From NCBI GenBank assembly GCA_964431885.1, contig CAYSLK010000138.1:1-59011 (forward strand): 59,011 nucleotides of DNA, read 5' to 3'. Within the stretch, counting starts at the first letter, position 1, and each line of letters starts with the position of its first letter. The DNA is from an uncultured Dehalococcoidia bacterium (lineage in GTDB: Bacteria > Chloroflexota > Dehalococcoidia > Lucifugimonadales > CAUZEB01). Shown here piece after piece: positions 2,091 to 55,431 of this stretch. Position numbers and translations under genes: made by a program. Below the pieces are notes generated by a model. The model saw nothing but the letters and a program-made list of their open reading frames with translations, did not search any database and had not been told where the DNA came from.

Positions 2091-2912
2091 GTGACGACTC
2101 CAGTGAAATCAAAAAGGGTACTAGAAGCTGCTGGCCTCTTTCTGGATAGTATTAAAGGGAAAGATAATCAAGAGGCAGCCCACCGTGAACTTTATCGTTT
2201 TGTTGATTGGTGTGGAACAGAGCGAACTTTCGAGGCTATTAACCCATCAGAAATCGGAGAGTATGTTGAACAAGTACTTGGCACCGGTACGTCACCCCAG
2301 GCTCCTGTACGTCTTCAAGCTCTTAAAGACTTTTTGATCTACGCTCGCAAACAAGGATTATTGACGATAAATTTGGCACAGCATGTTAGGGTTAGAAAAT
2401 CTAAGGCGAGAGCTGAATCGTCCAACCAGCTCAACTCCCAAGATGTGATAGAACTTACGCGAGACGGCCATGCTCAACTTGTGGAGCAATTGGAGAAACT
2501 GAAGTCAGAGCGCGCTCCACTGGCTATACAAATACAAAAGGCAGCAGCTGATAAAGATGTGCGAGAAAATGCTCCCTTGGAAGCCGCTCGTGAACAATTA
2601 GGGTACGTTGAATCTAGGATCAGAACATTAGAAGAGACATTGAAGAAGGCCGTCATTATTAAAACGACCCGTAAGGGCAAGTCTCAGGTAGTAAAATTAG
2701 GTGTGCGGGTGTCAGTCAAGGATTTGGAAAGCGGTAAGCGTAACAGTTATAGATTGGTTAATTCTACGGAGGCAAACCCTTCAGAAGGCAAGATTTCAAA
2801 CGCCTCACCTCTGGGTAAAGCTCTTTTTAACAGACGAGCAGGAACTGAGATTAAAGTTGATACGCCCAAAGGCATATCTAGATTCGAAATATTGAAGATA
2901 TATTCTAAATGA
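2091..2912 (+). CDS. greA: GreA-family transcript cleavage factor with an extra ~115 aa N-terminal integrase-SAM-like (core-binding type) domain
   Basis: GTG start. Residues ~120-273 align with E. coli GreA: the coiled coil KDVRENAPLEAAREQLGYVESRI matches [23 protein letters not shown] with the acidic tip D and E conserved. The C-terminal domain is YRLVNSTEANPSEGKISNASPLGKALFNRRAGTEIKVDTPKG. The N-terminus (RELYRFVDWCG..I.PSEIGEYVE...RLQALKDFLIYARKQGLL.INLAQHV) resembles the tyrosine-recombinase N-terminal SAM-like domain. Confidence 0.8.
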   Translation: MTTPVKSKRVLEAAGLFLDSIKGKDNQEAAHRELYRFVDWCGTERTFEAINPSEIGEYVEQVLGTGTSPQAPVRLQALKDFLIYARKQGLLTINLAQHVRVRKSKARAESSNQLNSQDVIELTRDGHAQLVEQLEKLKSERAPLAIQIQKAAADKDVRENAPLEAAREQLGYVESRIRTLEETLKKAVIIKTTRKGKSQVVKLGVRVSVKDLESGKRNSYRLVNSTEANPSEGKISNASPLGKALFNRRAGTEIKVDTPKGISRFEILKIYSK

Positions 2913-7289: not shown

Positions 7290-8729
7290 ATGAATTTTAA
7301 ACTTAATGAATTCACGTTTATGGATGCGACCGAACAGGCGGAACTAGTTAAACACAAACAAGTGAAACCCATAGAACTTGTTGAGGCAGCTATAAGACGA
7401 ATCGAGTCCGTAAATCCAAGCTTAAACGCGGTCATCCTTACAATGTATGATCAGGCTCGTGATATATCGTCAGGCCCGTTACAACAAGGTGCGTTCACCG
7501 GAGTGCCTTTCTTGATAAAAGACTTCCTGGCTGAATGCGAAGGGTTTGAATTTAATGAGGGTAGTAAATTCTTAAAGGGATATGTCCCGTTATCTGACAG
7601 TGAATTGGTAAAACGATATAAAGCTTCTGGTTTGATATTCGTTGGAAAAACAAATACACCAGAGTTCGCTATAGGTCCAACTACAGAGCCACGACTCAAT
7701 GGACCTACTCATAATCCGTGGGATCTAAGTCGAACAGCTGGAGGATCTAGCGGAGGCGCTGCCGCAGCAGTGGCTGCAAGAATGCTGCCCATCGCACATG
7801 GTAATGACGCCGGAGGATCCATCCGTATTCCAGCTGGCTGTTGTGGAGTATTCGGTCTAAAGCCTACGAGAGGCCGGAATCCCCTAGGTCCACACTATGG
7901 GGATTTGATAAATGGACTAGTTTCAGAGCACGTTTTAACTATTTCCGTAAGAGACAGCGCAAATATATTAGATGTCTCGTCGGGGCCAAATGCAGGCGAT
8001 CCATATTCTGCTCCACCTCCAAAACGGAATTATATAGATGAGGTAACCACACACCCCGGGCAACTACGTATTGCGTTTTCAACTCAGACACCACTTGGGA
8101 CCAAACTGCATCCAGAAGCAATTAAGTCGGTTCGCGAGACAGCTCAGTTATGCATAGATCTAGGTCATCAAGTAACAGAAATATCTCCAAATTTTGACGC
8201 TGAAACAATGTGGCGTAATTTCACAACAATGCTTGCGGCAGGGTTTGCATGGAGTCTGAAAGACTGGGAAAGACGACTCAATAAGAAAGCCACTCAGGAA
8301 ACGATAGAACCATTTGTGTGGTCATTCATGGCGAGGGGCAATGAAATCAGTGGACCTGATTACCTCTTAGCAGTTCAGACCGTGCAAAGGATCGCTAGAG
8401 ACGTAGCATTATTTTTTGAAAAATATGACGTCTGGCTTGGACCGACTTTGGGCGAACCTCCAGTACCCCTAGGAACTTTCGCATATTCCGGCAACGACCC
8501 TTTTGAAGTTCGTCGAAAGATGACAGCCTTTACTCCTTTCAATTTCGTTAGTAATGCCACAGGACAACCATCAATGTCAGTGCCTCTTTATTGGACAGGC
8601 GATGGTCTACCGATAGGTTCTCACTTTACTGGAAAGTTTGGTGATGAAGCAACCTTATTCCGGTTAGCTGCTCAACTCGAAGATGCGCGTCCATGGGCTA
8701 GCCGACTACCTCCAACTGTTGCGAGCTAG
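7290..8729 (+). CDS. amidase (amidase-signature family)
   Basis: AS signature [13 protein letters not shown] plus the [12 protein letters not shown] motif; 479 aa. Confidence 0.9.
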
Positions 8730-10457: not shown

Positions 10458-11495
10458 TTAGGGTTTACACGCCTTCATCACAGCCCTCACAGATGCTAGT
10501 GACGGGCGCGCGCTAACCACTCTTACAATTGCAGTATCTAGTCCCTGAGCTAAAGAGGTGAGTGCCTTGCTAGCACCTTCCGGCTTACCATAATATCCTA
10601 CACTTAGAAGTAATTCTGGGGGGAATGCCTCTATGATCTCGGAACGTGGTGCTCCATCCACTCGCATTTTGTCTATTCTCTTAAGAGTGTCAGAAAATCC
10701 GATTCGCTCAAAATGAGCTCTGTATCCCATTCGTCTCTCTTGGGAAGTTGGTACACGAGCACCAAGAGCATAGGGCATAAGTGATTTCGTGAAGGCTTCT
10801 CTAGCTAATTCCACGTCGTCGTCTATGCAAACGCGTATATACTCAACGGTCTTTATCTCGGATGGATCTCGGCCTGAAATGGTAGCACCTTCTGCAATCT
10901 TCTCTTTGCTCCAGACTCTCTGCTCAGGTGTGCACCAATTAAGTGCGGCACCATCAGCGAGTTCTCCAGCTAACTTCAACATCTTGGGACCTAAAGAACC
11001 TAGGTATATTGGTGTGCGCGGTGGAGGCCTTATGCCCAACCTAACATCAGTCAAGGTAACCACTTCACCTCTATAATCCAACTTCTCTCCAGACAGTAGC
11101 AAACGAAGGGTTGTCAAATAATCTCTCATCATCGAAAGAGCTGAAATATCAGGAAGTCCCATGCTAAGACGCGATGCAGATTGGTATACGGATCCAGCAC
11201 CTATTCCCAAGATAAACTTACCACCGGTTAATTCACTCAAGGTTCCACCGCTCATCGCTAAAGCAACTGGAGAACGGTACATCACCGGAACTACGGATAT
11301 ACCTGTGGTCAAACCTGTAGATGCTTCCCGTTGACTAGCTCTCCAACGATGGGCACAAACCTGAAAAGAGTCCCGGCCTGTCGTCTCAGGTGTCCAAATA
11401 CTGGTATATCCAAGTCTCGCAGCTTCGTATGCCATCTCTGCTTCATCCTCAAAGGATAACCGTAGAGAAGCATCTAATCCAAGCCCTATATCCAT
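10458..11495 (-). CDS. LLM-class (luciferase-like) flavin/F420-dependent oxidoreductase
   Basis: The N-terminus MDIGLGLD...EAARLGYTSIWTPE and overall TIM-barrel LLM pattern (LGIGAG, GPKMLKLAGELADG). Confidence 0.85.
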   Translation of the reverse strand: MDIGLGLDASLRLSFEDEAEMAYEAARLGYTSIWTPETTGRDSFQVCAHRWRASQREASTGLTTGISVVPVMYRSPVALAMSGGTLSELTGGKFILGIGAGSVYQSASRLSMGLPDISALSMMRDYLTTLRLLLSGEKLDYRGEVVTLTDVRLGIRPPPRTPIYLGSLGPKMLKLAGELADGAALNWCTPEQRVWSKEKIAEGATISGRDPSEIKTVEYIRVCIDDDVELAREAFTKSLMPYALGARVPTSQERRMGYRAHFERIGFSDTLKRIDKMRVDGAPRSEIIEAFPPELLLSVGYYGKPEGASKALTSLAQGLDTAIVRVVSARPSLASVRAVMKACKP

Positions 11496-33198: not shown

Positions 33199-34086
33199 AT
33201 GACAAACACTTTGACAATCATAGAAAGACTAGAAAGAGGGGATATTTTAATATCCGATGGAGCCACTGGCACTTATCTTCAAGCCCACGGGCTTGAACCT
33301 GGCGGTTGCCCGGAAGAATTTAATATTAGTCATCCTGAAATTATAAGACGCATGGCTCGCGAATACTTTGACGCAGGATCAGACTTGGTTCTAACAAATT
33401 CATTCGGTGGCAACAGATTTATGCAAGAGAAATACGGCTTAGGCGACAAGGTAAAAGAAATCAATCGTTTAGCAGCTGAACATGCAAAGAGCCAAACTCC
33501 ATCCGGTTGTTATGTAGTGGGTTCAATCGGCCCCACAGGCGAATTTCTGGAGCCACTTGGGCCGGTAACAGAAGAACAGATGCTAAACGCTTTCACAGAA
33601 CAAGCATGCGCCCTAGAAGAAGGAGGTGCTGATGCTGTAGTTATAGAGACACTTACTTCTATCGAAGAATGCGTTCTGGCAATAAAAGCTGCGAAGGAAA
33701 ATACAAAGCTGACAGTTATGGCTACCCTAACCTATGACAAAGGGCCAAGGGGTTTCTTCACTATGATGGGGGTAACACCTCAAATAGGAGTTACTGCTTT
33801 GAAAGAAGCAGGAGCTGATGTAATAGGTGCCAACTGTGGTAATGGGATAGACGTAATGGTCGAATTGGCCGCTGAGTTACGAGCTGTTACAAACGACTAC
33901 CTACTAATCCACTCAAACGCAGGAATACCATCTCTGCAAAACGGTGAAATAATATATCCCGAATCACCTAACTACATGGTCGATGGATTTCTACAATTAG
34001 TGGATCTTGGAGTAAATATACTAGGCGGCTGTTGCGGTTCGAATCCTGAACATATCAGAGCCTTAGCCAAGGCTATAAAAAATTGA
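33199..34086 (+). CDS. homocysteine S-methyltransferase-domain protein (MetH N-terminal / BHMT / MmuM type)
   Basis: ILISDGATGT, LVLTNSFG, and the Zn-ligand cysteines in GANCG and LGGCCGSNPEHI. Confidence 0.85.
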   Translation: MTNTLTIIERLERGDILISDGATGTYLQAHGLEPGGCPEEFNISHPEIIRRMAREYFDAGSDLVLTNSFGGNRFMQEKYGLGDKVKEINRLAAEHAKSQTPSGCYVVGSIGPTGEFLEPLGPVTEEQMLNAFTEQACALEEGGADAVVIETLTSIEECVLAIKAAKENTKLTVMATLTYDKGPRGFFTMMGVTPQIGVTALKEAGADVIGANCGNGIDVMVELAAELRAVTNDYLLIHSNAGIPSLQNGEIIYPESPNYMVDGFLQLVDLGVNILGGCCGSNPEHIRALAKAIKN

Positions 34087-34141
34087 ATCATTTTACTATC
34101 ATAAGATGAAATCTCTCGAATAGTAGGGGAAAGGAATTCTA

Positions 34142-34819
34142 ATGACTCTTGGTAAAAACGAAATATCGTATCAAGTCTACGACGTCCTGAACCGATATGG
34201 AACATGTGTTGAACTGATACCAGTAGACAAATATTTTCACGATATTACTATCGGTCTTTATCTAAAAAATAAGGTTTGCACTGTATGGACATTCAGTAAA
34301 CGACAAGGTGTTCATGAGAGAATTCTTCAAATCAGAAATCAGCTAGTCTCCCTTGGAGGAATGGTCCCAGTTGACGGAACCCACAATCAAGCTGAGTTCT
34401 CCTGCGGATATTTACACTTCAGACCTGCTAAATTTCTACTCAACCAAGCTGTAAATAAGAGCCCAGAATATTCTGCAAGTAATAATCCAATGACCATTAG
34501 AGATACGAAGAGTACATTGACTATCCAAGCAGTCGCTGTACAAAGAGATGATCAATGGGTCTACCAGATAGCTGGAAAGGGTGAAGCGCCCAACAAAGCC
34601 ATACGTATTCGGATGATAGTCGCAGGTTTCATTCGATATGGTGAAATGAATAAGGTTAATGACACGGAAGTATCCTTTTCCTGTGGCCAGCGTCACGATG
34701 ACATAACCAGGCTGTTACTGCCTTTTTCACGGAACATTTCTAGCGTGGAAAGCATGATCGCCGCAGAAGCTCTACGAGGTCAAATGACTACTGGCACTTT
34801 AGGTTTCACCCCGATCTAA
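34142..34819 (+). CDS. hypothetical protein with internal duplication (two FSCG..H repeats)
   Basis: 225 aa. MVPVDGTHNQAEFSCGYLHFRPAKFLL (residues ~74-100) and MNKVNDTEVSFSCGQRHDDITRLLL (~169-193) are clearly related repeats. I recognise no family. Confidence 0.6.
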   Translation: MTLGKNEISYQVYDVLNRYGTCVELIPVDKYFHDITIGLYLKNKVCTVWTFSKRQGVHERILQIRNQLVSLGGMVPVDGTHNQAEFSCGYLHFRPAKFLLNQAVNKSPEYSASNNPMTIRDTKSTLTIQAVAVQRDDQWVYQIAGKGEAPNKAIRIRMIVAGFIRYGEMNKVNDTEVSFSCGQRHDDITRLLLPFSRNISSVESMIAAEALRGQMTTGTLGFTPI

Positions 34820-34904
34820 CCCAACTGTAAACAACTTATTTGCTTTTATAGCCAGACTTCAACTTAACAGACCATGTTTTTACAAACATTGAGGAGGCCA
34901 TTAC

Positions 34905-35942
34905 ATGCCCACCAGTGCAACAATGACACCAAGAGAGCGAGTTTTAAACGCCCTGTCCGGCTCTCCTGTCGATCGTACTCCCGTAGCCAATCCAACAAGT
35001 GTGGCGACCGTAGAACTCATGGATATGGTGGATGCTCCATTTCCTGGCGCATGCCGTGATCCCGAAATGGCTGCTCGTCTAGCAGCTACGGGTCATACGA
35101 TACTGGGATTCGATTCCGTAATGCCGTATTTCACTATTATTCAGGAGTCTTCTGCGTTAAATTGTGAAATGCAGTGGGAAGGGAAAGATAATTGGCCAAC
35201 AGTGCGCATGTACAATCCGATTTGGAGAGGTCCTAACGACATCTCAATACCTCCCGATTTCCTTGATCATCCTGATAATCAGACAATCACCAAATCAATT
35301 GCGATGTTAAAGTCGGAATTTGGCAACGAAGTTGCAATAATAGGGAAAACTATGGGCCCATGGACACTAGCTTACCATGTATTTGGTGTGGAAAGTTTTC
35401 TTTTAAGTACTGTTGATGACCCTTCACTAGTTAAAAAAGGATTGAATAAATTGAAAGAGATTTCTATTCTCTTTGGGGAAGCACAAATTGACGCTGGGGC
35501 AGATATACTAACTTTTCCTGATCACGCAACAGGAGACTTAGTTAGTGGCGATTATTACAGAAGATTTCTTCAAGAACTGCACGTGGAAATGGCTGAACGA
35601 CTCTCAGTACCCCTAATTCTCCATATTTGCGGTAATACGCTCGACAGAATGAAATATATTGCTGAAACCGGCATGGCGGCTTTCCATTTCGATTCTAAGA
35701 ATGATCCTCAGTTAGCTATGGACGCAGTTGAAGGCAAAATAGCTATGGTTGGTAACATAAATAATCCTGAAACCCTGTACGCCAGAGGACCTGAGGAGGT
35801 TCGAGAGGAAGTATTCAGAGCTTTAGACGCTGGCGTAGATTTAATTGCTCCAGAATGTGCGATTCCTCTGGCAACGAAACTCGAAAATCTTCTTGAAATT
35901 CCTAGATCAGTAATAAAATGGCATGAAGAACGGGATGGATAG
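34905..35942 (+). CDS. uroporphyrinogen-decarboxylase-family methyltransferase (MtaA/MtbA/MtsA-like, Zn-dependent methylcobamide:thiol type)
   Basis: MTPRERVLNALSG.PVDR.P N-terminus, Zn motif LILHICGNT (H-x-C) and a distal Cys in APECAIP. RBS GGAGG 7 nt upstream. Confidence 0.85.
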   Translation: MPTSATMTPRERVLNALSGSPVDRTPVANPTSVATVELMDMVDAPFPGACRDPEMAARLAATGHTILGFDSVMPYFTIIQESSALNCEMQWEGKDNWPTVRMYNPIWRGPNDISIPPDFLDHPDNQTITKSIAMLKSEFGNEVAIIGKTMGPWTLAYHVFGVESFLLSTVDDPSLVKKGLNKLKEISILFGEAQIDAGADILTFPDHATGDLVSGDYYRRFLQELHVEMAERLSVPLILHICGNTLDRMKYIAETGMAAFHFDSKNDPQLAMDAVEGKIAMVGNINNPETLYARGPEEVREEVFRALDAGVDLIAPECAIPLATKLENLLEIPRSVIKWHEERDG

Positions 35943-36143
35943 TCCCTATCACACTATAGAGTCCGTACTTCCAAAGGTGATTATTTTTCAAATGCCTAAT
36001 CTATTGCTTCAAAATCACATCTTTCCAATACAAAGTGGCTAGATTTAAATTTAACTGATAAAATCTTTTATGATCATCAATGTCTATTTATAGATGACCA
36101 CAATCTATGGAGGTCTATACCTAAATGGTGGGGAAGAAAACAA

Positions 36144-36887
36144 ATGCCCATTACACATGATGGTTTGAAGAAGGAATTTGAATATATCGGTAAGCCCTTT
36201 GAGTTGAATCACATCCAAAGTCTATTCAACGACTCCGACCCATTAATGCACGAAATGGCTCACAACCTCATAATAGGCAATCAACACGAAGTAGATCGTC
36301 TAACAAAAAAAGCTCTTGACTCAGGGTTTTCCGCTAATACTATCCTAGACGATGGTCTCATATCTGGTATGGCTATTGTCGGGATTAAATTTAGAGACAA
36401 TTTTATTTTCGTCCCTGAGGTTTTAGTGGCGGCTCGTGCAATGAAAGCAGGGATGGCACACTTGGAACCTATATTGTCAGCCTCTGGTATAAAACCAATT
36501 GGCACTATCATAATGGGTACCGTAAAGGGCGATCTGCACGACATAGGTAAAAACCTTTGCATCATGATGCTAAGAGGAGCCGGATTCACTGTTCACGATC
36601 TCGGAGTTGACACCACATCAGACACATTCATTGAAGCGGTATCTGAACACAATGCTGATATTTTAGGAATGTCAGCATTGTTAACCACAACCATGCCTAA
36701 TATGGGCAAGACTATAGAAGCATTTGAAGAGTTGGGGCTACGTTATGAAGTTAAAATCATGGTCGGAGGTGCTCCATTGACACAAGAATTCGCCGATGAT
36801 ATGGGTGCCGATGGGTACGGACAGGACGCTATATCCTGCGTAGATCTCGCTAAAACATTTGTAGGCATCCAGACATTAAATCAATAG
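36144..36887 (+). CDS. corrinoid (cobalamin-binding) protein, MtaC/MtbC-like
   Basis: B12-binding motifs GDLHDIGKN (DxHxxG), MSALLTTT (SxL) and MVGGAP (GG), preceded by a helical cap domain. Confidence 0.9.
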   Translation: MPITHDGLKKEFEYIGKPFELNHIQSLFNDSDPLMHEMAHNLIIGNQHEVDRLTKKALDSGFSANTILDDGLISGMAIVGIKFRDNFIFVPEVLVAARAMKAGMAHLEPILSASGIKPIGTIIMGTVKGDLHDIGKNLCIMMLRGAGFTVHDLGVDTTSDTFIEAVSEHNADILGMSALLTTTMPNMGKTIEAFEELGLRYEVKIMVGGAPLTQEFADDMGADGYGQDAISCVDLAKTFVGIQTLNQ

Positions 36888-36923
36888 GTGATTTCAACTA
36901 CTCGTCAATCAGGATAGAATTAT

Positions 36924-37166
36924 ATGCGGCAAGAAGTTGATAAGGAAAGTTACAAAGCCAGTATAGAACGTCTTCATGATATCTTCAAAGACATGTCTAA
37001 AAGTGTTGACAAAGTGTCGCGTTGGCGCTGTCCATACAAGAATGCGAAAGATAGATGTACCGCTAATTTCGGCTGTCGAAACCAGGATCGAGACGTAACA
37101 CCAGGTACCTTATACATTTGCAATGATAATAACGAATTAGACTACCGTAGCGCTTGGGAAATCTAA
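36924..37166 (+). CDS. hypothetical small four-cysteine protein
   Basis: 80 aa with WRCPYKNAKDRCTANFGCRNQ...YICND (C-x7-C-x5-C-x14-C). Begins 36 nt after the corrinoid protein gene. Confidence 0.5.
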   Translation: MRQEVDKESYKASIERLHDIFKDMSKSVDKVSRWRCPYKNAKDRCTANFGCRNQDRDVTPGTLYICNDNNELDYRSAWEI

Positions 37167-37364: not shown

Positions 37365-37697
37365 GTGATGAAGAAGGATCGCTCTCCGACACTGAAAGAA
37401 ATCGGTGATTTGATTTCCCATTCGCTAGATGCGGGAATTAAGTTGAAACGCTTACAAGGCTTTGACATAGACCTTTCAGCTAATAAGGATTTTCACAAAG
37501 TATTTTTTTCAGCCATATGCTCGTGTGGTACTGCAGCTGTACTTAGCGTAGAGGTTTCCAATAATAAAACCATGAATGAAATCAAACGCGCGCTCCCGTC
37601 ACTAGTAAATAAACTCACAGTTCAGAGTGAAATGTTCTATCGTATGTCCTGCGACATGCACAAGAAAATGCGGAGCGGTCTCACAGACAAACTCTAA
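37365..37697 (+). CDS. hypothetical protein
   Basis: 110 aa ORF (GTG 37365 or ATG 37368 after GAGG). Contains a CSC motif. No family recognised. Confidence 0.45.
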   Translation: MMKKDRSPTLKEIGDLISHSLDAGIKLKRLQGFDIDLSANKDFHKVFFSAICSCGTAAVLSVEVSNNKTMNEIKRALPSLVNKLTVQSEMFYRMSCDMHKKMRSGLTDKL

Positions 37698-37727: not shown

Positions 37728-38165
37728 ATGGCAAGGCGTCCAAAAAAGCAATTTACAGAGGCAGAGGCATTACAACGAGCCAAAAAGTTTTCCGAAGGCT
37801 ATGTTAAAAAAGGTCCGTACGAATTTTTCCCCGAACAAGATGTTGTTCAGGTGGTGCAAGAAGGATTGGGAGAAAATGAAAGGAAATTCGGATATCGTTA
37901 TTGCCCTTGAATGCCCCTAAGCGGTGATCCCGTCGAGGATCGCAAGAAAATATGTCCTTGTGAGCGTCATCATGAAGACATAGAACGAGATGGATTCTGT
38001 ATATGAATGTTTTTTGTAAGCGAAGAGTTTCTTCGCAAGTATGAATCTGGGGAAGATTTCAGCCAAACTATAGACGAGGCTGTTCCGCTTGGCGAAGAGT
38101 TGTTTGGCGAGGGTGGAGGCAAACGAGAGTTCAACGATAAAAAACGTAAACAAGCTTCAGAATAG
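37728..38165 (+). CDS. ferredoxin:thioredoxin reductase catalytic-subunit-like protein, predicted selenoprotein with two Sec (TGA 37908-37910 and 38004-38006)
   Basis: Reading through the two in-frame TGAs gives a 145-residue protein, KKFSEGYVKKGPYEFF..VVQVVQEGLGENERKFGYRYCP-U-MPLSGDPVEDRKKICPCERHHEDIERDGFCI-U-MFFVSEE... It is collinear with the FTR catalytic chain (..KFSEQYA.R..TYF...VI.GLA.HK..LG.PLCPCRHY..NCPCVPMRERKECHCMLFL). The TGAs fall on the second Cys of the first motif and the second Cys of the third motif. RBS AAGGA lies upstream of ATG 37728, and a stem-loop follows each TGA. Confidence 0.8.
37924..37943 (+). promoter_or_regulatory. SECIS-like stem-loop for TGA 37908
   Basis: 7 bp stem GUGAUCC/GGAUCGC (one G-U pair) with loop CGUCGA. 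20 nt separate the UGA from the loop, and G is the second loop base. Confidence 0.55.
38020..38036 (+). promoter_or_regulatory. SECIS-like stem-loop for TGA 38004
   Basis: Perfect 7 bp stem GCGAAGA/UCUUCGC with loop GUU. 20 nt separate the UGA from the loop, and G is the first loop base. Confidence 0.6.
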
Positions 38166-38206: not shown

Positions 38207-38455
38207 ATGGAAGATACAGGAGTTCAAGTTTATAGCTCCAACGGCTGAGGTCCCTGCCAAATGGTGAAGGTGTACCTTTCACGAAAGGGAATTCCATTTG
38301 AGGAATTTAATGTGTCATTAGACAGAGAAGCATTGACACGGCTGGTTAAAATGGGTTACAGAACGACACCCGTTGCGATTATTGGTAACGAGAAGGTAGT
38401 TGGATATAGCCCTTCCAAACTCGATTCTGCATTGAATACCGCCGGGCTGAGTTGA
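38207..38455 (+). CDS. NrdH/glutaredoxin-like redoxin, predicted selenoprotein (Sec at TGA 38246-38248; active site U-G-P-C)
   Basis: ATG 38207 (RBS AAGGA about 8 nt upstream) gives MEDTGVQVYSSNG-U-GPCQMVKVYLSRKGIPFEEFNV..TPVAIIGNEKVVGYSPSKL. It is collinear with NrdH/Grx (IYT..DCVQC...L...G..FE..NV...LPVV....GF.P), with the TGA at the first Cys of CxxC. The ORF track only reports the part after the TGA (38261..38455). Confidence 0.8.
38264..38282 (+). promoter_or_regulatory. SECIS-like stem-loop for TGA 38246
   Basis: Stem GUGAAGG/CC(U)UUCAC (7 bp, one bulged U) with loop UGUA. 22 nt separate the UGA from the loop, and G is the second loop base. Confidence 0.5.
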
Positions 38456-43596: not shown

Positions 43597-45021
43597 ATGG
43601 ACGAAACTTTAGTATTCCTACCTGCTACCGAATTATTAGAATTGATTGCTTCCAAACAGATATCGCCCGTGGAACTAACCAAACTTTATTTCAGACGTAT
43701 AGAACGCATAGACCCGCAATTAAATTCTTACCTTATTACAATGGAAGATGAGGCATTAAAGACGGCTGTAACTGCTGAACAAACCATCATGAAGGGTGAA
43801 GAATTAGGTGCATTACATGGCCTGCCAATTTCTATTAAAGACACGCAAATGACCAAAGGAGTAAGAACAACGACAGGCTCGCTTGTTTTCCAAGATCGAA
43901 TTCCTGACAAAGATTCAGCCGTGGTGGAACGAGTTAGGAAAGCCGGAGCAATATTACTTGGTAAAACAAATACTCCCGAGTTTGGGTTGGTAGGCACATG
44001 TGCAAACAATTTGGGAGATCACGGTCGTAATCCGTGGAACACTGAGTATACTCCTGGAGGGTCGAGTGGTGGAGCCGCAGCAGCCATGTCTGCTTGTTTA
44101 TGTGCTTTATCAACTGGCGGAGATGGAGGAGGTTCAATACGTATTCCCGCAAGTTTCTGTGGTATCTACGGCATAAAGCCAACTCAAGGCAGAGTATCCG
44201 GCTACACAGGAATCCAAACACCACCTATTCTTAATATATTTGGCCAACAGGGACCGCTAAGTCGGACCGTTAAAGACTCCGCTCTTCTTTTACAAGTTAT
44301 GGCTGGGTACGACCCTAGAGATCCCTCATCATTGCGTGAGGCTACACCCGATTTTCTCGCAGCTGTTGATCAAGACATACGCGGATTACGGGTAGCGTGG
44401 AGTCCGGATTATGGCTTCGCGAATGTAGATCAGGAAGTAAATGAAGTAACCCAGACAGCAGCAAAGGCATTCGAAGATCTAGGGTGCCATATTGAAACCA
44501 TAGACTTGAGATTAGAATCGCCGTACGACGCATATGGACCTATCTATGAAACTGCCGCATACGCATCCTACGGTCAATACATAAAATCGCATGGTGAACA
44601 ACTGACTGAATTCTCCAGATTTTTTATAGAAGCTGGATCGAAAATCTCCGGCGCCGACTATGCTAGAGCCCTTGGTCTGATAGATAGACTTAGATCGCAA
44701 ATGGACGATGTATTCACCGAGTATGATCTACTACTGTCACCCACCCTATCCGTACCCGGTGTTCGGGTCGGTGAATTTCCTGCAGAGATAGCCGGAAAGC
44801 CTGCTTATCCCCACCGATATTTTGGCTTTCATCCTTTCACTTATCCTATTAATGCAATAGGTCACGCAGCAGCCAGTATCCCAGCCGGCTTCTCCTCAAC
44901 AGGATTACCTATTGGTTTACATATAGTGGGAAAAAGAGGCGCCGAAACAACAGTAATAGCTGCTTCAGCCGCTTTTGAGAAGGCAAAGCCATGGATCCAC
45001 CATAACCCACCTGTGTCTTAA
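43597..45021 (+). CDS. amidase (amidase-signature family)
   Basis: [11 protein letters not shown] and [12 protein letters not shown] motifs. Confidence 0.9.
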   Translation: MDETLVFLPATELLELIASKQISPVELTKLYFRRIERIDPQLNSYLITMEDEALKTAVTAEQTIMKGEELGALHGLPISIKDTQMTKGVRTTTGSLVFQDRIPDKDSAVVERVRKAGAILLGKTNTPEFGLVGTCANNLGDHGRNPWNTEYTPGGSSGGAAAAMSACLCALSTGGDGGGSIRIPASFCGIYGIKPTQGRVSGYTGIQTPPILNIFGQQGPLSRTVKDSALLLQVMAGYDPRDPSSLREATPDFLAAVDQDIRGLRVAWSPDYGFANVDQEVNEVTQTAAKAFEDLGCHIETIDLRLESPYDAYGPIYETAAYASYGQYIKSHGEQLTEFSRFFIEAGSKISGADYARALGLIDRLRSQMDDVFTEYDLLLSPTLSVPGVRVGEFPAEIAGKPAYPHRYFGFHPFTYPINAIGHAAASIPAGFSSTGLPIGLHIVGKRGAETTVIAASAAFEKAKPWIHHNPPVS

Positions 45022-46686: not shown

Positions 46687-48207
46687 TTAAGTAAGATTTT
46701 CCCATTCGACATTACTCTCGAAAGCGTATGCGGTATTCAAAAGGCCAGCATCATCGAAATGTCGACCTATCAGCATTAGGCCCACAGGTAGACCGCTAGG
46801 CTTTCCACAAGGGACACTAATGGCCGGATGGCCCGTAATATTTGTTGGAGCGGTATTCCCCGACATATTCGAGCTATACTCCATAAGTTCACTAAGGCTT
46901 GCATTAGACCTGTATTGATGGGCCTTCATGGGAGTTGTAGGCATAGCTAACATATCTACTTGCTGAAAAGCACGATCATAACTATCTCGCAAAATTTTAG
47001 CAGCGTTCTGCGCTCTGCCATACACACTTCCATGATAAGTTTGATTTAGGTAAGTTCCCAATAAGAGCATAATCTTTACACTGGGGGGGAAATCATTCCC
47101 GTTCGTGATACGAGACTTACCAAGAACGTTGGCAAATGCGACATTATGGTGTCCACCAGAATGGTACCCTACGCCATTTTCACGTAACCCCATTGCACCA
47201 CCTTCGGCCGCAATTGCCCACGCAATGACTTTTCCGATATCTCGGTGCTCTGGAATTGACACTTCTTTAATTTCAGCACCCAAATCGCCCAAGACAGTCA
47301 AAGCATTACGAACCGAAGTATCCACCTCAGGATCTGATATCTTAAGACCAAAACCTTCCCTAACCAATCCTATTCTTAGGCCACTTATATTCTTTGATAA
47401 ATTATCAACATAGGATTCTACATTAAATTCAATTTGACGCGGATCCTTATGATCATTACCAGCTATAACTTCTAGTAATAGGGCAACGTCTTCTACATTA
47501 CGAGCCATGGGACCGGCATGATCGATGGTCGCATCTGCTCCTACTATTCCAGTATATCGAACTAGTCCAACCGTTGGCTTTAGACCCACCACGTCAAACC
47601 ATGATTCCGGCATACTGATGGATCCACCCTGATCACAACCGATAGTCATATCGACGTAATCATAATATAGAGATGCCGCTGACCCTCCGGAAGAACCTCC
47701 CGCCAGATAATGAGTATTATGCGGATTTAAAATGGGACCATAAGCACTTATCGCCCCTGCTCCAGAATAGGCGAAATCGTCCATGTTAAGTATCGCTGTG
47801 ATTTTCCCACCTTCTCCCAAGATCCTCGTAACTATCGTTGCATCGTCATCCGGCACAAATCCATCTAAGACTGTGGATCCACATGTCAAGGGTATGCCAG
47901 CAACACTTATATTGTCTTTCAAGCCAATTCTTTTTCCTGCCAACTTACCATTACTGCTGCCAGAAACCACGCATCTCCGTATAATGGCATTGAAAGGATC
48001 TTCCCTACAACTCGGCTTATCTAGAATCGAAACATCCCTCGTTATACTTGATCCGTTAGTAGGTCTAATACTAAAAAATTTGTCGAATGATTTTACCATT
48101 GGTTTCATTAGTGACTCAAACACTTCCAGTTCCTCATCATTTAACTCCATATGATTTTCGTTTGCTAAACGGTACAAATCATTTTTTGACGGTGGTCTGA
48201 TTTTCAT
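46687..48207 (-). CDS. amidase (amidase-signature family)
   Basis: GGSSGGSAAS and the CDQGGSISMP motif; 506 aa. Confidence 0.9.
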   Translation of the reverse strand: MKIRPPSKNDLYRLANENHMELNDEELEVFESLMKPMVKSFDKFFSIRPTNGSSITRDVSILDKPSCREDPFNAIIRRCVVSGSSNGKLAGKRIGLKDNISVAGIPLTCGSTVLDGFVPDDDATIVTRILGEGGKITAILNMDDFAYSGAGAISAYGPILNPHNTHYLAGGSSGGSAASLYYDYVDMTIGCDQGGSISMPESWFDVVGLKPTVGLVRYTGIVGADATIDHAGPMARNVEDVALLLEVIAGNDHKDPRQIEFNVESYVDNLSKNISGLRIGLVREGFGLKISDPEVDTSVRNALTVLGDLGAEIKEVSIPEHRDIGKVIAWAIAAEGGAMGLRENGVGYHSGGHHNVAFANVLGKSRITNGNDFPPSVKIMLLLGTYLNQTYHGSVYGRAQNAAKILRDSYDRAFQQVDMLAMPTTPMKAHQYRSNASLSELMEYSSNMSGNTAPTNITGHPAISVPCGKPSGLPVGLMLIGRHFDDAGLLNTAYAFESNVEWENLT

Positions 48208-50912: not shown

Positions 50913-52139
50913 ATGCATCTGATGTACTTTACAGAACAGCCGATGTCAACATATCCAGAGCAAGAAGCTCTCGATGCAGGAGGTGTGAGTGCTTTAATGC
51001 TCTCAAATAAACACTTCAACCCAGAGGAAGGGAGCAGGCTATATAACGAGCGGTTAGAAGAGTATATTTACGCAGAGGAAATGGGTGTGGATGGAATCAT
51101 GTTAAATGAACACCATAACGCCCCTTTTTGCATGCAAGCCAGAGTCAACATATTTGCAGCCGCATTAGCTGCTGTAACTGAAAGAGTTAAAATAGTCCTT
51201 CTAGGCAACCCTTTGCCCGTCAATGAAAACCCACTCCAGACTGCTGAAGAAATAGCTATGGTAGACATGATGAGCAAAGGTCGTCTAGTATCTGGCTTTG
51301 TAAGAGGTGGAGGAACAGAACAATTTGCTAACAATACGAACCCTGCATATAACCGTGAACGTTTTACAGAAGCTCATGATTTACTAATTAAGACCTGGAC
51401 TGAACCTGGTCCTTTTAGATGGGAAGGTAATCATTACCAATTCCGAGTGGTAAATCCATGGGCATTACCCCTACAAAAACCTCATCCTCGCATCTGGATA
51501 CCAGGGGTAGCTAGTTTGGAAACTATCATATGGGCTGCTGAACACAGATATCCCTATATATGCTTGAACACTAGTATAGAACAAACAAAACAGATTTGGG
51601 AACTCTATGATCGAACGGCTGAAAAATCAGGATATATCGCAGGGCCGGAGCAAAGAGGTTACCTAATCCGATGCCATGTAGCAGAAACCGAAGAGAAAGC
51701 AATTAAAAATGGCAGAGAATTTATGTGGATGCAGGGTGAATTTACTGGCGTAGGGCACCCGACCTGGTTCAGTCCCCCTGGTTATACTTCTGCTCAGTCA
51801 CGTAAGCGGGCTGCTGAAGGACAAAAACTTAGGAGTAAGACTACCTTTGAAGATATGCTAAACATGGGGATGATAATTGCTGGAACCCCAGATCAAGTTG
51901 TAGAAAGGTTAAAGAAAATAATGGAGGAAACCCGCCCATCCATTTTAGCTCTATGGGGAAACGACGGTAAAGTAGATCACAAGGATTCCTTGGAATGTAT
52001 TCGTTTATTAGGGCAAGAAGTCATGCCGAAAGTAAGAGAAATTGGAGATAGGCTTGGTCTCCTAAGCCCATTTGAGTTAAATTCTCCTGTCAGTCTAGCA
52101 GCCTCACAACTAAACAACCAGTGGACTGCCTCAGCATGA
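50913..52139 (+). CDS. LLM-class flavin-dependent oxidoreductase
   Basis: GVDGIMLNEHH and a luciferase-like barrel pattern; 408 aa. Confidence 0.85.
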   Translation: MHLMYFTEQPMSTYPEQEALDAGGVSALMLSNKHFNPEEGSRLYNERLEEYIYAEEMGVDGIMLNEHHNAPFCMQARVNIFAAALAAVTERVKIVLLGNPLPVNENPLQTAEEIAMVDMMSKGRLVSGFVRGGGTEQFANNTNPAYNRERFTEAHDLLIKTWTEPGPFRWEGNHYQFRVVNPWALPLQKPHPRIWIPGVASLETIIWAAEHRYPYICLNTSIEQTKQIWELYDRTAEKSGYIAGPEQRGYLIRCHVAETEEKAIKNGREFMWMQGEFTGVGHPTWFSPPGYTSAQSRKRAAEGQKLRSKTTFEDMLNMGMIIAGTPDQVVERLKKIMEETRPSILALWGNDGKVDHKDSLECIRLLGQEVMPKVREIGDRLGLLSPFELNSPVSLAASQLNNQWTASA

Positions 52140-52628: not shown

Positions 52629-53132
52629 TCAATCGATTTGAAGTTGATCGCCCTCTATAACAATTACCTGGCCACGAAAAGATACTATAGCTCTCGTGAA
52701 ACGCCTCAATTCTTGTCGAAGTCCATCCATACGTCGCATAACTTCTGATTCGTAAGGTTCATTAGGTGCCATAGCCATAGATTTACCCCAAAGTCCGGGT
52801 TGAGGTAAATTCTTTAAGAACTGACGTAAGTGAATCAAAAAGGCCTCAAATGTTTGTGAGGACACTTCATATATAGGCGTAGCAGTCTGTGGTTCAGTAA
52901 ACATAAACTGCAGTATCCACTCATCATTTGTAACCCTGTTAGACATGACAAGACTAGGCCAGGGTTGACTAGAAAAGACCGTCCTAGTCTCGTCGTTATC
53001 TTTTCCGACCTCCCTGAGTGTTGCTTGTAAAACTCTTAATAAGGAAGAAACATACGACACTGGCAAATGTTCGGATCTTAAAGCGATTTCCAGCCCTAGC
53101 AGACCTTTTTGTTCCTGGTTTACTTTATTCAT
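52629..53132 (-). CDS. hypothetical protein, probably co-transcribed with selB
   Basis: 167 aa ORF starting 18 nt downstream of the selB stop on the same strand. No family recognised. Confidence 0.55.
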   Translation of the reverse strand: MNKVNQEQKGLLGLEIALRSEHLPVSYVSSLLRVLQATLREVGKDNDETRTVFSSQPWPSLVMSNRVTNDEWILQFMFTEPQTATPIYEVSSQTFEAFLIHLRQFLKNLPQPGLWGKSMAMAPNEPYESEVMRRMDGLRQELRRFTRAIVSFRGQVIVIEGDQLQID

Positions 53133-53150: not shown

Positions 53151-55013
53151 CTAACGTAGGATACGTACATCTCCTACACGACGAGTAATCCGTTCTTTAT
53201 CTAAATAATCCATAAGGGCCAAAGCATATTTACGACTCGTTCCAAATATATCCCTAACGTTAGCGATAGTTATCTGACCGTGTTCGTTGATATGTTTACC
53301 AATTCCGTCTACCATTTCCACATATGCCGACATGGAAAATGTAACACTATCACTTACTCTGACTACTTGACCTTGATCAACAAGAGCGTTCACCACTTCC
53401 GGATCGATTATTACATCAGTAGGCGGTGCGAATCTATCCGATTCCAGCAAACTTATATATTGCCCTACAACTTCTTGATGTAACTCACTAAAACTAGGAC
53501 TGTGTCCAGTGAGCCTAACTATGGCACCACTTTCAACTATATTCAATTCTCTTACAAGCATGGCCAGTATTTGATTAAATATTTGAGGTGTTATATCTAG
53601 CCTACTGCGAACCTCCTCTTTGGGAGCTCCTTGACGTAAAGGAAACTGTGCATGATAACGCTTCAAATATTCTACGGTCTCCTGCACAACACTATCGAAT
53701 CCTGTCTTTGTATATAAGTAGTCACCTGGTTTGACAACTTTCTGCCCAAGTACAACCACTAAACTATCTGATGCCATGCGATCTATTATATTTTTTGCAT
53801 ACTCGAACTCAAGATTAGCCTTGGAAACCAGCTCGCTAAACTCACAAGGCTCTGACATTTCTATAGTTTTTAGAATTATATCGCTTTCAGACCCTTTAGA
53901 CATAGTCTCCAGTCTGCTCAGGGTAGGGGAATGCATTCTCCTATGACGACGAGCATGAGTGTCCACAATAGTTCCACCACCGAGTGTAGTTCTATTTGAC
54001 CTTACAACAAAATAATCACCCTTTACCACTGCGATCGGAGAATTCAATTTAAGTTGTGCCCACGTAATATCTCCTGGATTGGAACGTTGTTTATCAAGTA
54101 AACGAACTTTTGCTATCACTTCGTTGCTTCCAGAATGTACAGTTACAAACATGTTATGCGATATAGGAAATTGCGAGTCAGTCACAACTCTCAAACTGAC
54201 ATCAATCGCCATAGTAGGATTTAACCAGCCTGGAGATGCCATCACTTCGCCTCGGCTAATTTTATCCGGGGATATACCACTCAAATTGGCGGCCACACGA
54301 TTCCCTGGTAAAGCGTGAGTCTGATTCCGTTTGTGTGTTTGTAACCCTCTTATACGGGTCTTCTCCCCAGACAACACTAACTCCATTTCAGTACCAATAG
54401 TTAAAGAACCATCTGTTAGAGTTCCGGTTACTACCGTACCAAATCCTTGTACAGTAAACGATCGGTCAATAGGGAGGCGTGGCCTCCCTAGACTGCGCTT
54501 TATGGGGACATCTTGTAACAGGTTATCAAGTTTTGAAATTAGCAAAGACATGCCCTCGCCTGTTACACCCGAAACTCTCAAGACTGGAATTCCTTCCATT
54601 GTCGTACCTTGGAGAGCTTCGTTAATATCACCTTCCACTAGATCAAGCCAATCACTATCAACAAGATCACTTTTTGTTAAAGCTACCAAGCCATGTTTGA
54701 CCTGAAGAAGATCCAATATCGCTACGTGTTCCCTCGTTTGAGGCATCACCGATTCGTCAGCAGCTACTACTATCAAAGCCAGATCTATACCACCAATGCC
54801 TGCTAACATATTATTTATAAAACGCTCGTGGCCGGGAACATCAACAATACTTACTTGGTTGCCGCTAGGCAAATCGAGCCAAGCAAAACCCAAGTCGATA
54901 GTCAATCCTCGTTCTTTTTCTTCGACGAATCTATCTGGATCTATTCCAGTAAGTCTCTCAACTAGAGTTGACTTACCATGGTCTACATGACCAGCAGTCC
55001 CCACAACATACAT
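53151..55013 (-). CDS. selB: selenocysteine-specific translation elongation factor
   Basis: GTAGHVDHGKSTL, DVPGHERF and TKSDL GTPase motifs, EF-Tu-like domains II/III, and a C-terminal winged-helix tail (RDIFGTSRKYALALMDYLDKERITRRVGDVRIL). ATG 55013 has GGAG 7 nt upstream; the ORF-track ATG is at 55028. Confidence 0.9.
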   Translation of the reverse strand: MYVVGTAGHVDHGKSTLVERLTGIDPDRFVEEKERGLTIDLGFAWLDLPSGNQVSIVDVPGHERFINNMLAGIGGIDLALIVVAADESVMPQTREHVAILDLLQVKHGLVALTKSDLVDSDWLDLVEGDINEALQGTTMEGIPVLRVSGVTGEGMSLLISKLDNLLQDVPIKRSLGRPRLPIDRSFTVQGFGTVVTGTLTDGSLTIGTEMELVLSGEKTRIRGLQTHKRNQTHALPGNRVAANLSGISPDKISRGEVMASPGWLNPTMAIDVSLRVVTDSQFPISHNMFVTVHSGSNEVIAKVRLLDKQRSNPGDITWAQLKLNSPIAVVKGDYFVVRSNRTTLGGGTIVDTHARRHRRMHSPTLSRLETMSKGSESDIILKTIEMSEPCEFSELVSKANLEFEYAKNIIDRMASDSLVVVLGQKVVKPGDYLYTKTGFDSVVQETVEYLKRYHAQFPLRQGAPKEEVRSRLDITPQIFNQILAMLVRELNIVESGAIVRLTGHSPSFSELHQEVVGQYISLLESDRFAPPTDVIIDPEVVNALVDQGQVVRVSDSVTFSMSAYVEMVDGIGKHINEHGQITIANVRDIFGTSRKYALALMDYLDKERITRRVGDVRILR

Positions 55014-55431
55014 ATGGTGACTCCACATTTCAAAGTGATCCTAAGAATAGCATAGGCATCGTTTAGGGGCAATTTGATAAACATTGGTCGTCCCTACCAA
55101 ACGTCCAATAACTTTAGAAGATGCTAATAAGAAGTAACCTAATAGGCTGGCATCTCTTTATCTTGTATTTTCATGTATAAAGGATCTGAATAGTCTCACC
55201 TCTAATTGTCCAATGAAGAATCAAGTTAATCTTCTCTGATAAAAAAGAATACTGTGTCGCTACAAAATCTATATCGTAGGTGCATACATACATGTGGACT
55301 CATTAGCTTTCATAGCATACAATCCTATCTAGACATGTAATATAGAAAGCGTTGCCACCAAGCCAAGAATCTATTACTAGCTTTTATTGACTTGGCCATT
55401 AAAGCCATCCCGTGAATTAGGAGGATGATAA

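Follow-up and report, generated by a model that had tools for sequence, protein, structure and literature searches.

The DNA analyzed here, referred to below as the window, is a stretch of 59,011 nucleotides (contig CAYSLK010000138.1) from a marine SAR202 (Dehalococcoidia) bacterium. The gene under study lies on its forward strand at 37728..38165; it is a real gene of 145 codons with two internal TGA codons and a TAG stop, and its product is a homologue of the catalytic chain of ferredoxin:thioredoxin reductase (FTR), predicted to be a double-selenoprotein of the FtrB family. Translation starts at ATG 37728, and the frame reaches the first TGA (TGA-1; 37908..37910) right behind the residues ...GYRYCP. 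Past this codon the frame reads MPLSGDPVEDRKKICPCERHHEDIERDGFCI up to the second TGA (TGA-2; 38004..38006), and from there MFFVSEEFLRKYESGEDF... to the TAG at 38163-38165. The two codons are residues 61 and 93 of the product, written here as Sec61 and Sec93 for selenocysteine (Sec). Sec61 corresponds to the solvent-exposed interchange cysteine of FTR (Cys57 in Synechocystis numbering), and Sec93 to the cluster-interacting cysteine (Cys87).

The gene was compared across 84 loci, namely those of 80 genomes and of three metagenome contigs plus the window itself; the 80 are the best of 199 genome loci encoding relatives, found by scanning one genome per GTDB species. The predicted ligands of the [4Fe-4S] cluster, C59, C76, C78 and C91, are Cys in 100% of these 84 loci. 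C91 and Sec93 are separated by an Ile in 81 of them and by a Leu in the other three, never by His. A conserved C-terminal extension of about 45 amino acids is specific to the clade.

For scoring against Pfam and NCBIfam, Cys was put in at both TGA positions. Residues 15-107 of the product, a span that includes both TGAs, match Pfam FeThRed_B (PF02943; E = 2.4e-22; 79.4 bits against a cutoff of 22). Against the NCBIfam equivalog NF041072.1, "FtrB family double-selenoprotein," the product scores 226.3 bits, with a cutoff of 160 (E = 5.3e-68), and the match covers profile positions 1-120 of 121. A phmmer search against all PDB chains returned FTR-type proteins only, with 4tpu (E = 3e-12) and 7pwe (5e-11) ahead of the classical catalytic chains 7bzk, 1dj7, 2pu9 and others (about 1e-5 to 1e-6). 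In the alignments to 4tpu, 7pwe and 7bzk, C59-P-TGA61 falls on the motif CPC and C91-I-TGA93 on CYC/CHC, while C76/C78 align with the second CPC of the PDB chains. In both motifs, CPC and CxC, it is the second Cys that TGA replaces, which places the two TGAs at the redox-active pair of the FTR literature. An earlier reading, made from the window's letters without database searches (the sequence-only reading), had placed two in-frame TGAs at these same coordinates in an FTR catalytic-chain homologue, on precisely the redox-active pair and with Cys at all four ligand positions; the sequence, the family and PDB-chain matches, the alignments and the Cys-containing homologues described below agree with it on each count.

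Judged by its sequence, the product is FTR-like (FtrB family) and not a classical photosynthetic FTR, because its redox pair is TGA/TGA and the His of the CHC motif is absent. No gene for the FTR variable subunit (FeThRed_A) was found among the window open reading frames (ORFs) that were scanned, although one may lie elsewhere in the genome. An AlphaFold model of the reductase, built from a nine-sequence alignment with Trp at the Sec sites and no cluster, reached a predicted local distance difference test (pLDDT) score of 55 and was discarded. We consider it very probable that the gene is a member of the already curated family NF041072, and thus encodes a [4Fe-4S] disulfide reductase in which both redox-active residues are Sec.

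Conservation and decoding of the two TGA codons

The 80 genome loci all come from metagenome-assembled genomes (MAGs) or single-cell genomes of Dehalococcoidia, SAR202 or Chloroflexota. The gene is present, for example, on the complete SAR202 chromosomes OZ242014.1, OZ245405.1 and OX638292.1. Site 1 is TGA in 83 of the 84 loci and TGC (Cys) in one, L002; site 2 is TGA in every locus. With TGA shared by 83/84 and 84/84 orthologous loci, its presence at these two sites is far beyond chance. The frame behind each TGA is open in 84/84 loci, and the other two frames are open in 5-24/84. Pooled ratios of nonsynonymous to synonymous change (pN/pS) show purifying selection on each of the three segments: the N-terminal one has 0.24 and the C-terminal one 0.23, and the lowest value, 0.045, belongs to the 31 codons that separate the TGAs, where constraint on the gene is strongest. 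Synonymous sites are saturated. A loss of conservation after the first TGA, which the sequence-only reading had named as an outcome that would overturn it, is thus not what is seen.

These data bear directly on the proposal that the locus is a pseudogene or truncated gene, in which translation stops at TGA-1, giving a 60-aa fragment followed by a decaying remnant. Standard gene callers do yield such fragments: the public gene calls are either pieces of 52-62 aa (56-62 aa N-terminal, 52-aa C-terminal) or full-length with Trp twice. In addition, P0012, a protein with a garbled N-terminus from a 573-bp metagenome contig, carries Ser at site 1. Decay is hard to reconcile with the same TGAs and an intact, selectively maintained downstream coding sequence in 84 loci whose GC content ranges from 34 to 68%, or with the strongest constraint falling between the TGAs; a 60-aa product would, moreover, hold only one of the four cluster ligands. 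We give the pseudogene proposal practically no credence.

A word-indexed search of 5.8 billion proteins gave 13 close homologues, nine of them full-length with "W" at both sites and three stopping after ...FCI. The DNA beneath these protein calls is TGA/TGA in L001 and L003 and Cys/TGA in L002. Since the DNA shows TGA in L001 and L003, the W calls are most likely the work of gene callers that translated TGA as Trp, using an alternative code on short contigs. An exhaustive hidden Markov model (HMM) search of 1.84 billion cluster representatives recovered the family only as fragments, the N-terminal ones ending at profile position 56 and the C-terminal ones starting at position 90. No full-length relative exceeds 39% identity, and all of them have Cys in the two columns (22 distant full-length homologues aligned). 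With the Cys of L002 at site 1, these homologues supply Cys/Sec pairs at both sites, the orthologue pairs for which the sequence-only reading had recommended a search.

The loci L002:397-834 and L003:52-480 belong to a second double-Sec FtrB clade, which is more divergent (about 57-65% identity); at site 1, L002 has Cys and L003 has Sec.

The full-length calls with W at both positions could also be taken at face value, as a sign that TGA means Trp or Gly (genetic code 4 or 25) throughout the genome or lineage. TGA is, however, an ordinary stop here: it ends 11 of the 42 long ORFs in the window, and it is the terminal stop of the FtrB gene itself in 25/84 loci. In those 25 loci TGA is therefore read two ways in one mRNA, with three TGAs and two meanings. 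The homologues, furthermore, have Cys and not Trp or Gly at both columns, and both SelB and SECIS hairpins exist (see below). Reassignment has a negligible chance of being correct, and the view already taken from the letters, that recoding is local and the code standard, holds for the window and for the FtrB genes alike.

Both UGAs are decoded and are not stops, and behind each, at a distance of 13 nt and within the coding sequence, lies its own 7-bp hairpin resembling a selenocysteine insertion sequence (SECIS) element. Hairpin 1 (37924..37943, forward strand) pairs 37924-30 with 37937-43 (GUGAUCC/GGAUCGC) around a 6-nt loop, CGUCGA (37931-36), which follows the family pattern NGUNGA with G-U at loop positions 2-3. 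Hairpin 2 (38020..38036, forward strand) pairs 38020-26 with 38030-36 (GCGAAGA/UCUUCGC) around the loop GUU (38027-29), which is GUU in 84/84 loci. The bacterial SECIS (bSECIS) model of PMC13188914 (Fig. 2) specifies a loop of 3-9 nt, a stem of 4-16 bp, a G within the first two loop positions, a UGA-to-loop distance of 16-37 nt and a minimum free energy (MFE) of -7.5 kcal/mol or lower. With loops 20 nt behind the UGA and MFEs of -10.1 (hairpin 1) and -9.2 kcal/mol (hairpin 2), both structures agree with this model in every respect. The sequence behind the terminal TGAs, by comparison, folds weakly (mean -4.5 kcal/mol). In Rfam at the gathering threshold only a tRNA-Asp matched, with no Rfam family at either hairpin of the FtrB gene.

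The codons that form the hairpins are unusually constrained. Per-codon synonymous entropy is near its maximum gene-wide, except at codons +4 to +12 behind TGA-1 and +5 to +10 behind TGA-2; these low-entropy blocks coincide with the hairpin arms, and wobble sites inside the loop of hairpin 1 are free to vary. Frozen codons include Gly GGC (81/84), Asp GAT (81/84), Glu GAG (82/84) and Arg CGC (78/84), as well as a Leu in hairpin 2 that is CTT in all 84 loci despite six-fold degeneracy. Hairpin 2 shows two independent compensatory changes, one from C-G to U-A accompanied by R to H (L032/L036), the other from G-C to A-U accompanied by S to N (L080/L083). When the coding sequence was recoded synonymously (2000 trials, window codon usage), equal stability arose in 1.45% of trials for hairpin 1 and 0.65% for hairpin 2. 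The SECIS check advised in the sequence-only reading therefore ends with a SECIS-like hairpin downstream of each TGA of the FtrB gene.

The codon behind Sec61 (37911-37913) is ATG/Met in 84/84 loci and the codon behind Sec93 (38007-38009) is ATG/Met in 78/84 and CTG/Leu in six, whereas the Cys homologues have variable residues at these positions. The Met after both Sec codons could be a UGA context for Sec decoding or have a structural role. The same regularity, unusual and reminiscent of stop-start coupling, is what could be cited for a split gene, in which translation stops and re-initiates at the next ATG to give peptides of 60, 31 and 52 aa that assemble non-covalently. The CTG behind TGA-2 in six loci does not suit this arrangement, and a Shine-Dalgarno-like motif precedes the internal ATGs in 0/84 loci as against 51/84 at the true start. 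The assembled protein would also be without both catalytic residues; the hairpins obey the bSECIS spacing and loop rules; and in L002 a sense Cys codon at site 1 leaves the coding sequence uninterrupted. A split gene is accordingly a highly improbable account.

Sec insertion is further indicated by a gene for the selenocysteine-specific elongation factor SelB. The selB gene (53151..55028, reverse strand; 625 aa) lies in the same window, 15 kb from the selenoprotein genes, and its product has four Pfam domains: GTP_EFTU (8.6e-34), SelB-wing_3 (5.1e-21), SelB-wing_2 (1.8e-13) and Beta-barrel_SelB (1.5e-12). SelB binds bacterial SECIS hairpins. A 167-aa ORF just downstream of selB (52629-53132, reverse strand) has no Pfam match.

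A remaining alternative accepts read-through, SECIS-dependent or near-cognate, and holds that Cys or a Sec/Cys mixture is inserted, so that the active site would often be a selenenylsulfide or disulfide. Cys mis-insertion at Sec codons is possible under selenium limitation, and selenium is scarce in seawater; this general knowledge favors some Cys insertion, as does L002, which shows that Cys is tolerated at site 1. Yet TGA has been kept in 83/84 and 84/84 loci when a single mutation, to TGC or TGT, gives Cys, and SelB is present. That TGA persists despite this one-step route to Cys argues that Sec itself is selected, and we regard Cys or mixed insertion as unlikely.

Several points weigh against insertion of Sec at both sites and against the chemistry that is proposed for it below. 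Neither selA nor selD nor tRNA-Sec was found in the 59-kb window (ARAGORN, Rfam and ORF scans); of the full Sec pathway of the source genome, SelB is the component seen within this window. Hairpin 1 carries an A-C mismatch and adopts a shifted-register fold in 17/84 loci, and support from covariation is limited, the stems being almost invariant. Classical FTR has a His beside its cluster-interacting Cys where this protein has Ile, and mechanistic details may differ. The proposed diselenide, Fe-Se intermediate and electron donor are argued by analogy with FTR, and the substrate from synteny. Finally, we found no protein-level evidence for, or biochemical study of, a Sec-containing FTR, and the literature that was found is bioinformatic only.

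Neighboring genes and a proposed mechanism

The gene located 41 nt downstream of FtrB (38207..38455, forward strand) encodes a YruB/NrdH-like Sec-glutaredoxin of 82 aa with the active site G-U-G-P-C. Its own in-frame TGA (TGA-3; 38246..38248, forward strand) is read as Sec14, the first position of the UxxC motif. The product matches Pfam glutaredoxin (PF00462; E = 5.2e-13, 49.4 bits versus 22.9), and thereby shares the fold family and the UxxC motif of Sec-glutaredoxin, an established selenoprotein family; its best NCBIfam matches, YruB and NrdH, are below their own cutoffs. Identification as a "GOS_C" or "Uxx-star" selenoprotein was rejected, since NF045500 gave no match and the Uxx-star models scored below cutoff.

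A SECIS-like hairpin is also present behind TGA-3. Hairpin 3 (38264..38282, forward strand) has a 7-bp stem, 38264-70 / 38276-82 (GUGAAGG/CUUUCAC), with the loop UGUAC located 22 nt from the UGA, and it is the alifold consensus over 81 loci. The minimal 24 nt fold with an MFE of -7.2 kcal/mol, a 50-nt context with -14.3, and 1.15% of synonymous recodings are equally stable. The G-U-GPC gene adjoins FtrB in 80/84 loci, being downstream on the same strand in 72 and divergent upstream in eight. The pair also occurs in L004 (L004:2032-2749), a 328-kb long-read metagenome contig with a GC content of about 60% or higher; its FtrB is frameshifted by apparent indel errors, and several insertion sequence (IS)/transposase genes follow the pair.

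Directly upstream of FtrB, at 37368..37697 on the forward strand, lies an orphan gene for a CxC...CxxH protein of about 109 aa. The ORF list begins it at GTG 37365, but the likely start codon is ATG 37368, where database protein P0163 also begins. In 77/84 loci an orthologue lies immediately upstream of FtrB in the same orientation, separated from it by a median of 21 nt (profile HMM; tblastn), and the residues C51, C53, C95 and H98 are invariant. The protein belongs to no Pfam or NCBIfam family. Its AlphaFold2 model has a pLDDT of 87, and comparison with PDB folds, the FTR variable chains included, gave nothing significant (best E 0.2, TM-score 0.33). Its genomic position makes it a candidate partner for the reductase, one that would bind metal and act as electron donor or cluster shield. 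The CxC...CxxH protein, FtrB and the Sec-glutaredoxin form a conserved three-gene module by synteny. In the L002/L003 clade, FtrB has neither the CxC...CxxH ORF nor the Sec-glutaredoxin as a neighbor but a 47-aa desulforedoxin-like gene (PF06397; L002:913-1056 and L003:570-713).

The mechanism established for FTR (Dai et al. 2007, as cited in PMC2398784) provides a template for the SAR202 enzyme. By this analogy, reduced ferredoxin or another low-potential donor would pass single electrons to the [4Fe-4S] cluster. The resting oxidized state would be a Sec61-Sec93 diselenide, opened by the first electron; Sec93, on the cluster side, would then be transiently bonded to cluster iron as a selenolate, and the exposed Sec61 would attack the oxidized substrate. 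The second electron would resolve the mixed intermediate. Judging from synteny, the physiological substrate of the reductase is probably the co-encoded Sec-glutaredoxin (UGPC), and the CxC...CxxH protein may be a further partner.

Together these steps would amount to a three-gene selenium relay in aerobic deep-ocean SAR202, comprising the CxC...CxxH donor or shield, the [4Fe-4S]/diselenide FtrB and the Sec-glutaredoxin; we put this forward tentatively, as a possibility about which we are more doubtful than confident. If it is true, all thiol-exchange steps would proceed via selenium, the Fe-Se bonded intermediate would be one not known to have been observed in the enzyme class, and the CxC...CxxH protein would be an orphan-fold metalloprotein that either donates electrons or shields the cluster in place of the plant variable chain.

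Relation to known systems

The sequence-only reading was unsure whether a Sec-containing FTR had been reported. Zhang and Gladyshev (PLoS Genet 2008, PMC2398784) listed "ferredoxin-thioredoxin reductase" among seven new selenoprotein families of the Global Ocean Sampling (GOS) metagenome, with two Sec at exactly both redox-active residues. The family reappears in later reviews (PMC9312934, PMC13188914), the latter giving it as NF041072 with 2 Sec. The double-Sec interpretation therefore stands and any claim to novelty falls: the finding is a correct re-discovery of a known, curated family. NF041072, the GOS selenoprotein and the SAR202 gene are the same family, with two Sec at the same positions and a SECIS element predicted downstream. 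As a discovery it adds little, the family having been in the literature since 2008 and an NCBI equivalog model being available.

What is added here to the reports on the family is its presence in at least 80 SAR202/Dehalococcoidia species and the explicit description of two separate SECIS hairpins, with synonymous and compensatory evidence for them. To these come the variant with Cys at site 1 and the conserved setting of three genes; none of the four was found stated in the literature on the family, nor was the pairing of a Sec-glutaredoxin with the double-Sec FtrB found mentioned there. PMC13326102 lists Dehalococcoidia MAGs, which have 46-49 selenoproteins each, with the bacteria richest in them. 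In this abundant, selenoprotein-rich deep-ocean clade the module is near-universal, and it ties selenium supply to thiol redox control. Public collections hold the gene mostly as fragments or as Trp/Trp proteins, with the consequence that SAR202 redox metabolism is systematically under-annotated.

Compared with classical FTR (PF02943; 1dj7, 2pu9, 7bzk), the SAR202 protein has the same collinear CPC...CPC...CxC scaffold and four Cys ligands. The redox-active pair by the [4Fe-4S] cluster is Cys/Cys in the former and Sec/Sec in the latter. The relationship is otherwise distant, for the His of CHC is replaced by Ile/Leu, the C-terminal extension of about 45 aa is added and no variable-subunit gene adjoins. 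The hosts differ as well: SAR202 is a non-photosynthetic marine heterotroph, unlike the cyanobacteria and chloroplasts that have classical FTR.

The nearest solved relatives, 4tpu (deposited as "Rubredoxin") and 7pwe ("Ferredoxin-thioredoxin reductase subunit B"), represent the FTR-like ferredoxin:disulfide reductases of anaerobes and archaea. Like the SAR202 protein, they are single-subunit, FTR-like, outside photosynthesis and possess a non-His CxC motif (CYC). They differ in having Cys at both redox sites and extra domains (chains of 173 and 196 aa), whereas the SAR202 protein is without a fused domain; its gene is accompanied by a separate small one for the CxC...CxxH protein or, in L002/L003, by the desulforedoxin-like neighbor. 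The latter recalls the rubredoxin-type name given to 4tpu.

Paired Sec residues are also known from the eukaryotic protein SelL, which has a UxxU motif. Bacterial UxxU entries listed in PMC13188914 include a peroxiredoxin-like (Prx-like) protein, the metal-binding protein NF041115 and the FmdB family. In SelL and the bacterial UxxU proteins, as in FtrB, two Sec replace a dithiol redox or metal-binding pair. The UxxU pairs, however, are adjacent within one motif and share one SECIS region, whereas in FtrB 32 codons separate the two Sec residues, a SECIS of its own serves each, and by analogy with FTR they would meet only through the fold, beside the Fe-S cluster. FtrB thus offers a natural case of two separately encoded Sec, 32 codons apart, that would converge by a [4Fe-4S] cluster, and a clean system in which the effects of selenium on the one-electron mechanism of FTR, Fe-Se versus Fe-S bonding and diselenide potential, could be studied.

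Other content of the window

Upstream of the three-gene module lies a corrinoid methyltransferase cluster (33199-37166), all of it on the forward strand. It begins with a homocysteine/betaine S-methyltransferase-like gene (33199-34086), followed by an ORF with no named function (34142-34819), an MtaA/CmuA-family methyltransferase (34905-35942), an MtgC-like corrinoid protein of the glycine-betaine type (36144-36887) and, at its end, a small Cys-rich ORF that belongs to no family (36924-37166). The corrinoid methyltransferase genes at 33199-36887 were considered as functional context for FtrB, which might for instance have activated corrinoid proteins by reduction, and rejected; they are neighbors only in the closest relative, L005, and because they are common to that locus alone they do not belong to the FtrB module.

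A GreA/GreB-family transcription elongation factor of 273 aa is encoded at 2091-2912 (forward strand); its GreA domains span residues 121-271 and are preceded by an N-terminal extension of about 120 aa without a Pfam match. The window also contains three amidase paralogues (7290-8729, 43597-45021 and 46687-48207) and two luciferase-like, flavin-dependent monooxygenases (10458-11495 and 50913-52139). Together with genes for short-chain dehydrogenases/reductases (SDRs), enolase-superfamily proteins and alpha/beta-hydrolases, these make up the paralogue-rich catabolic content typical of SAR202.

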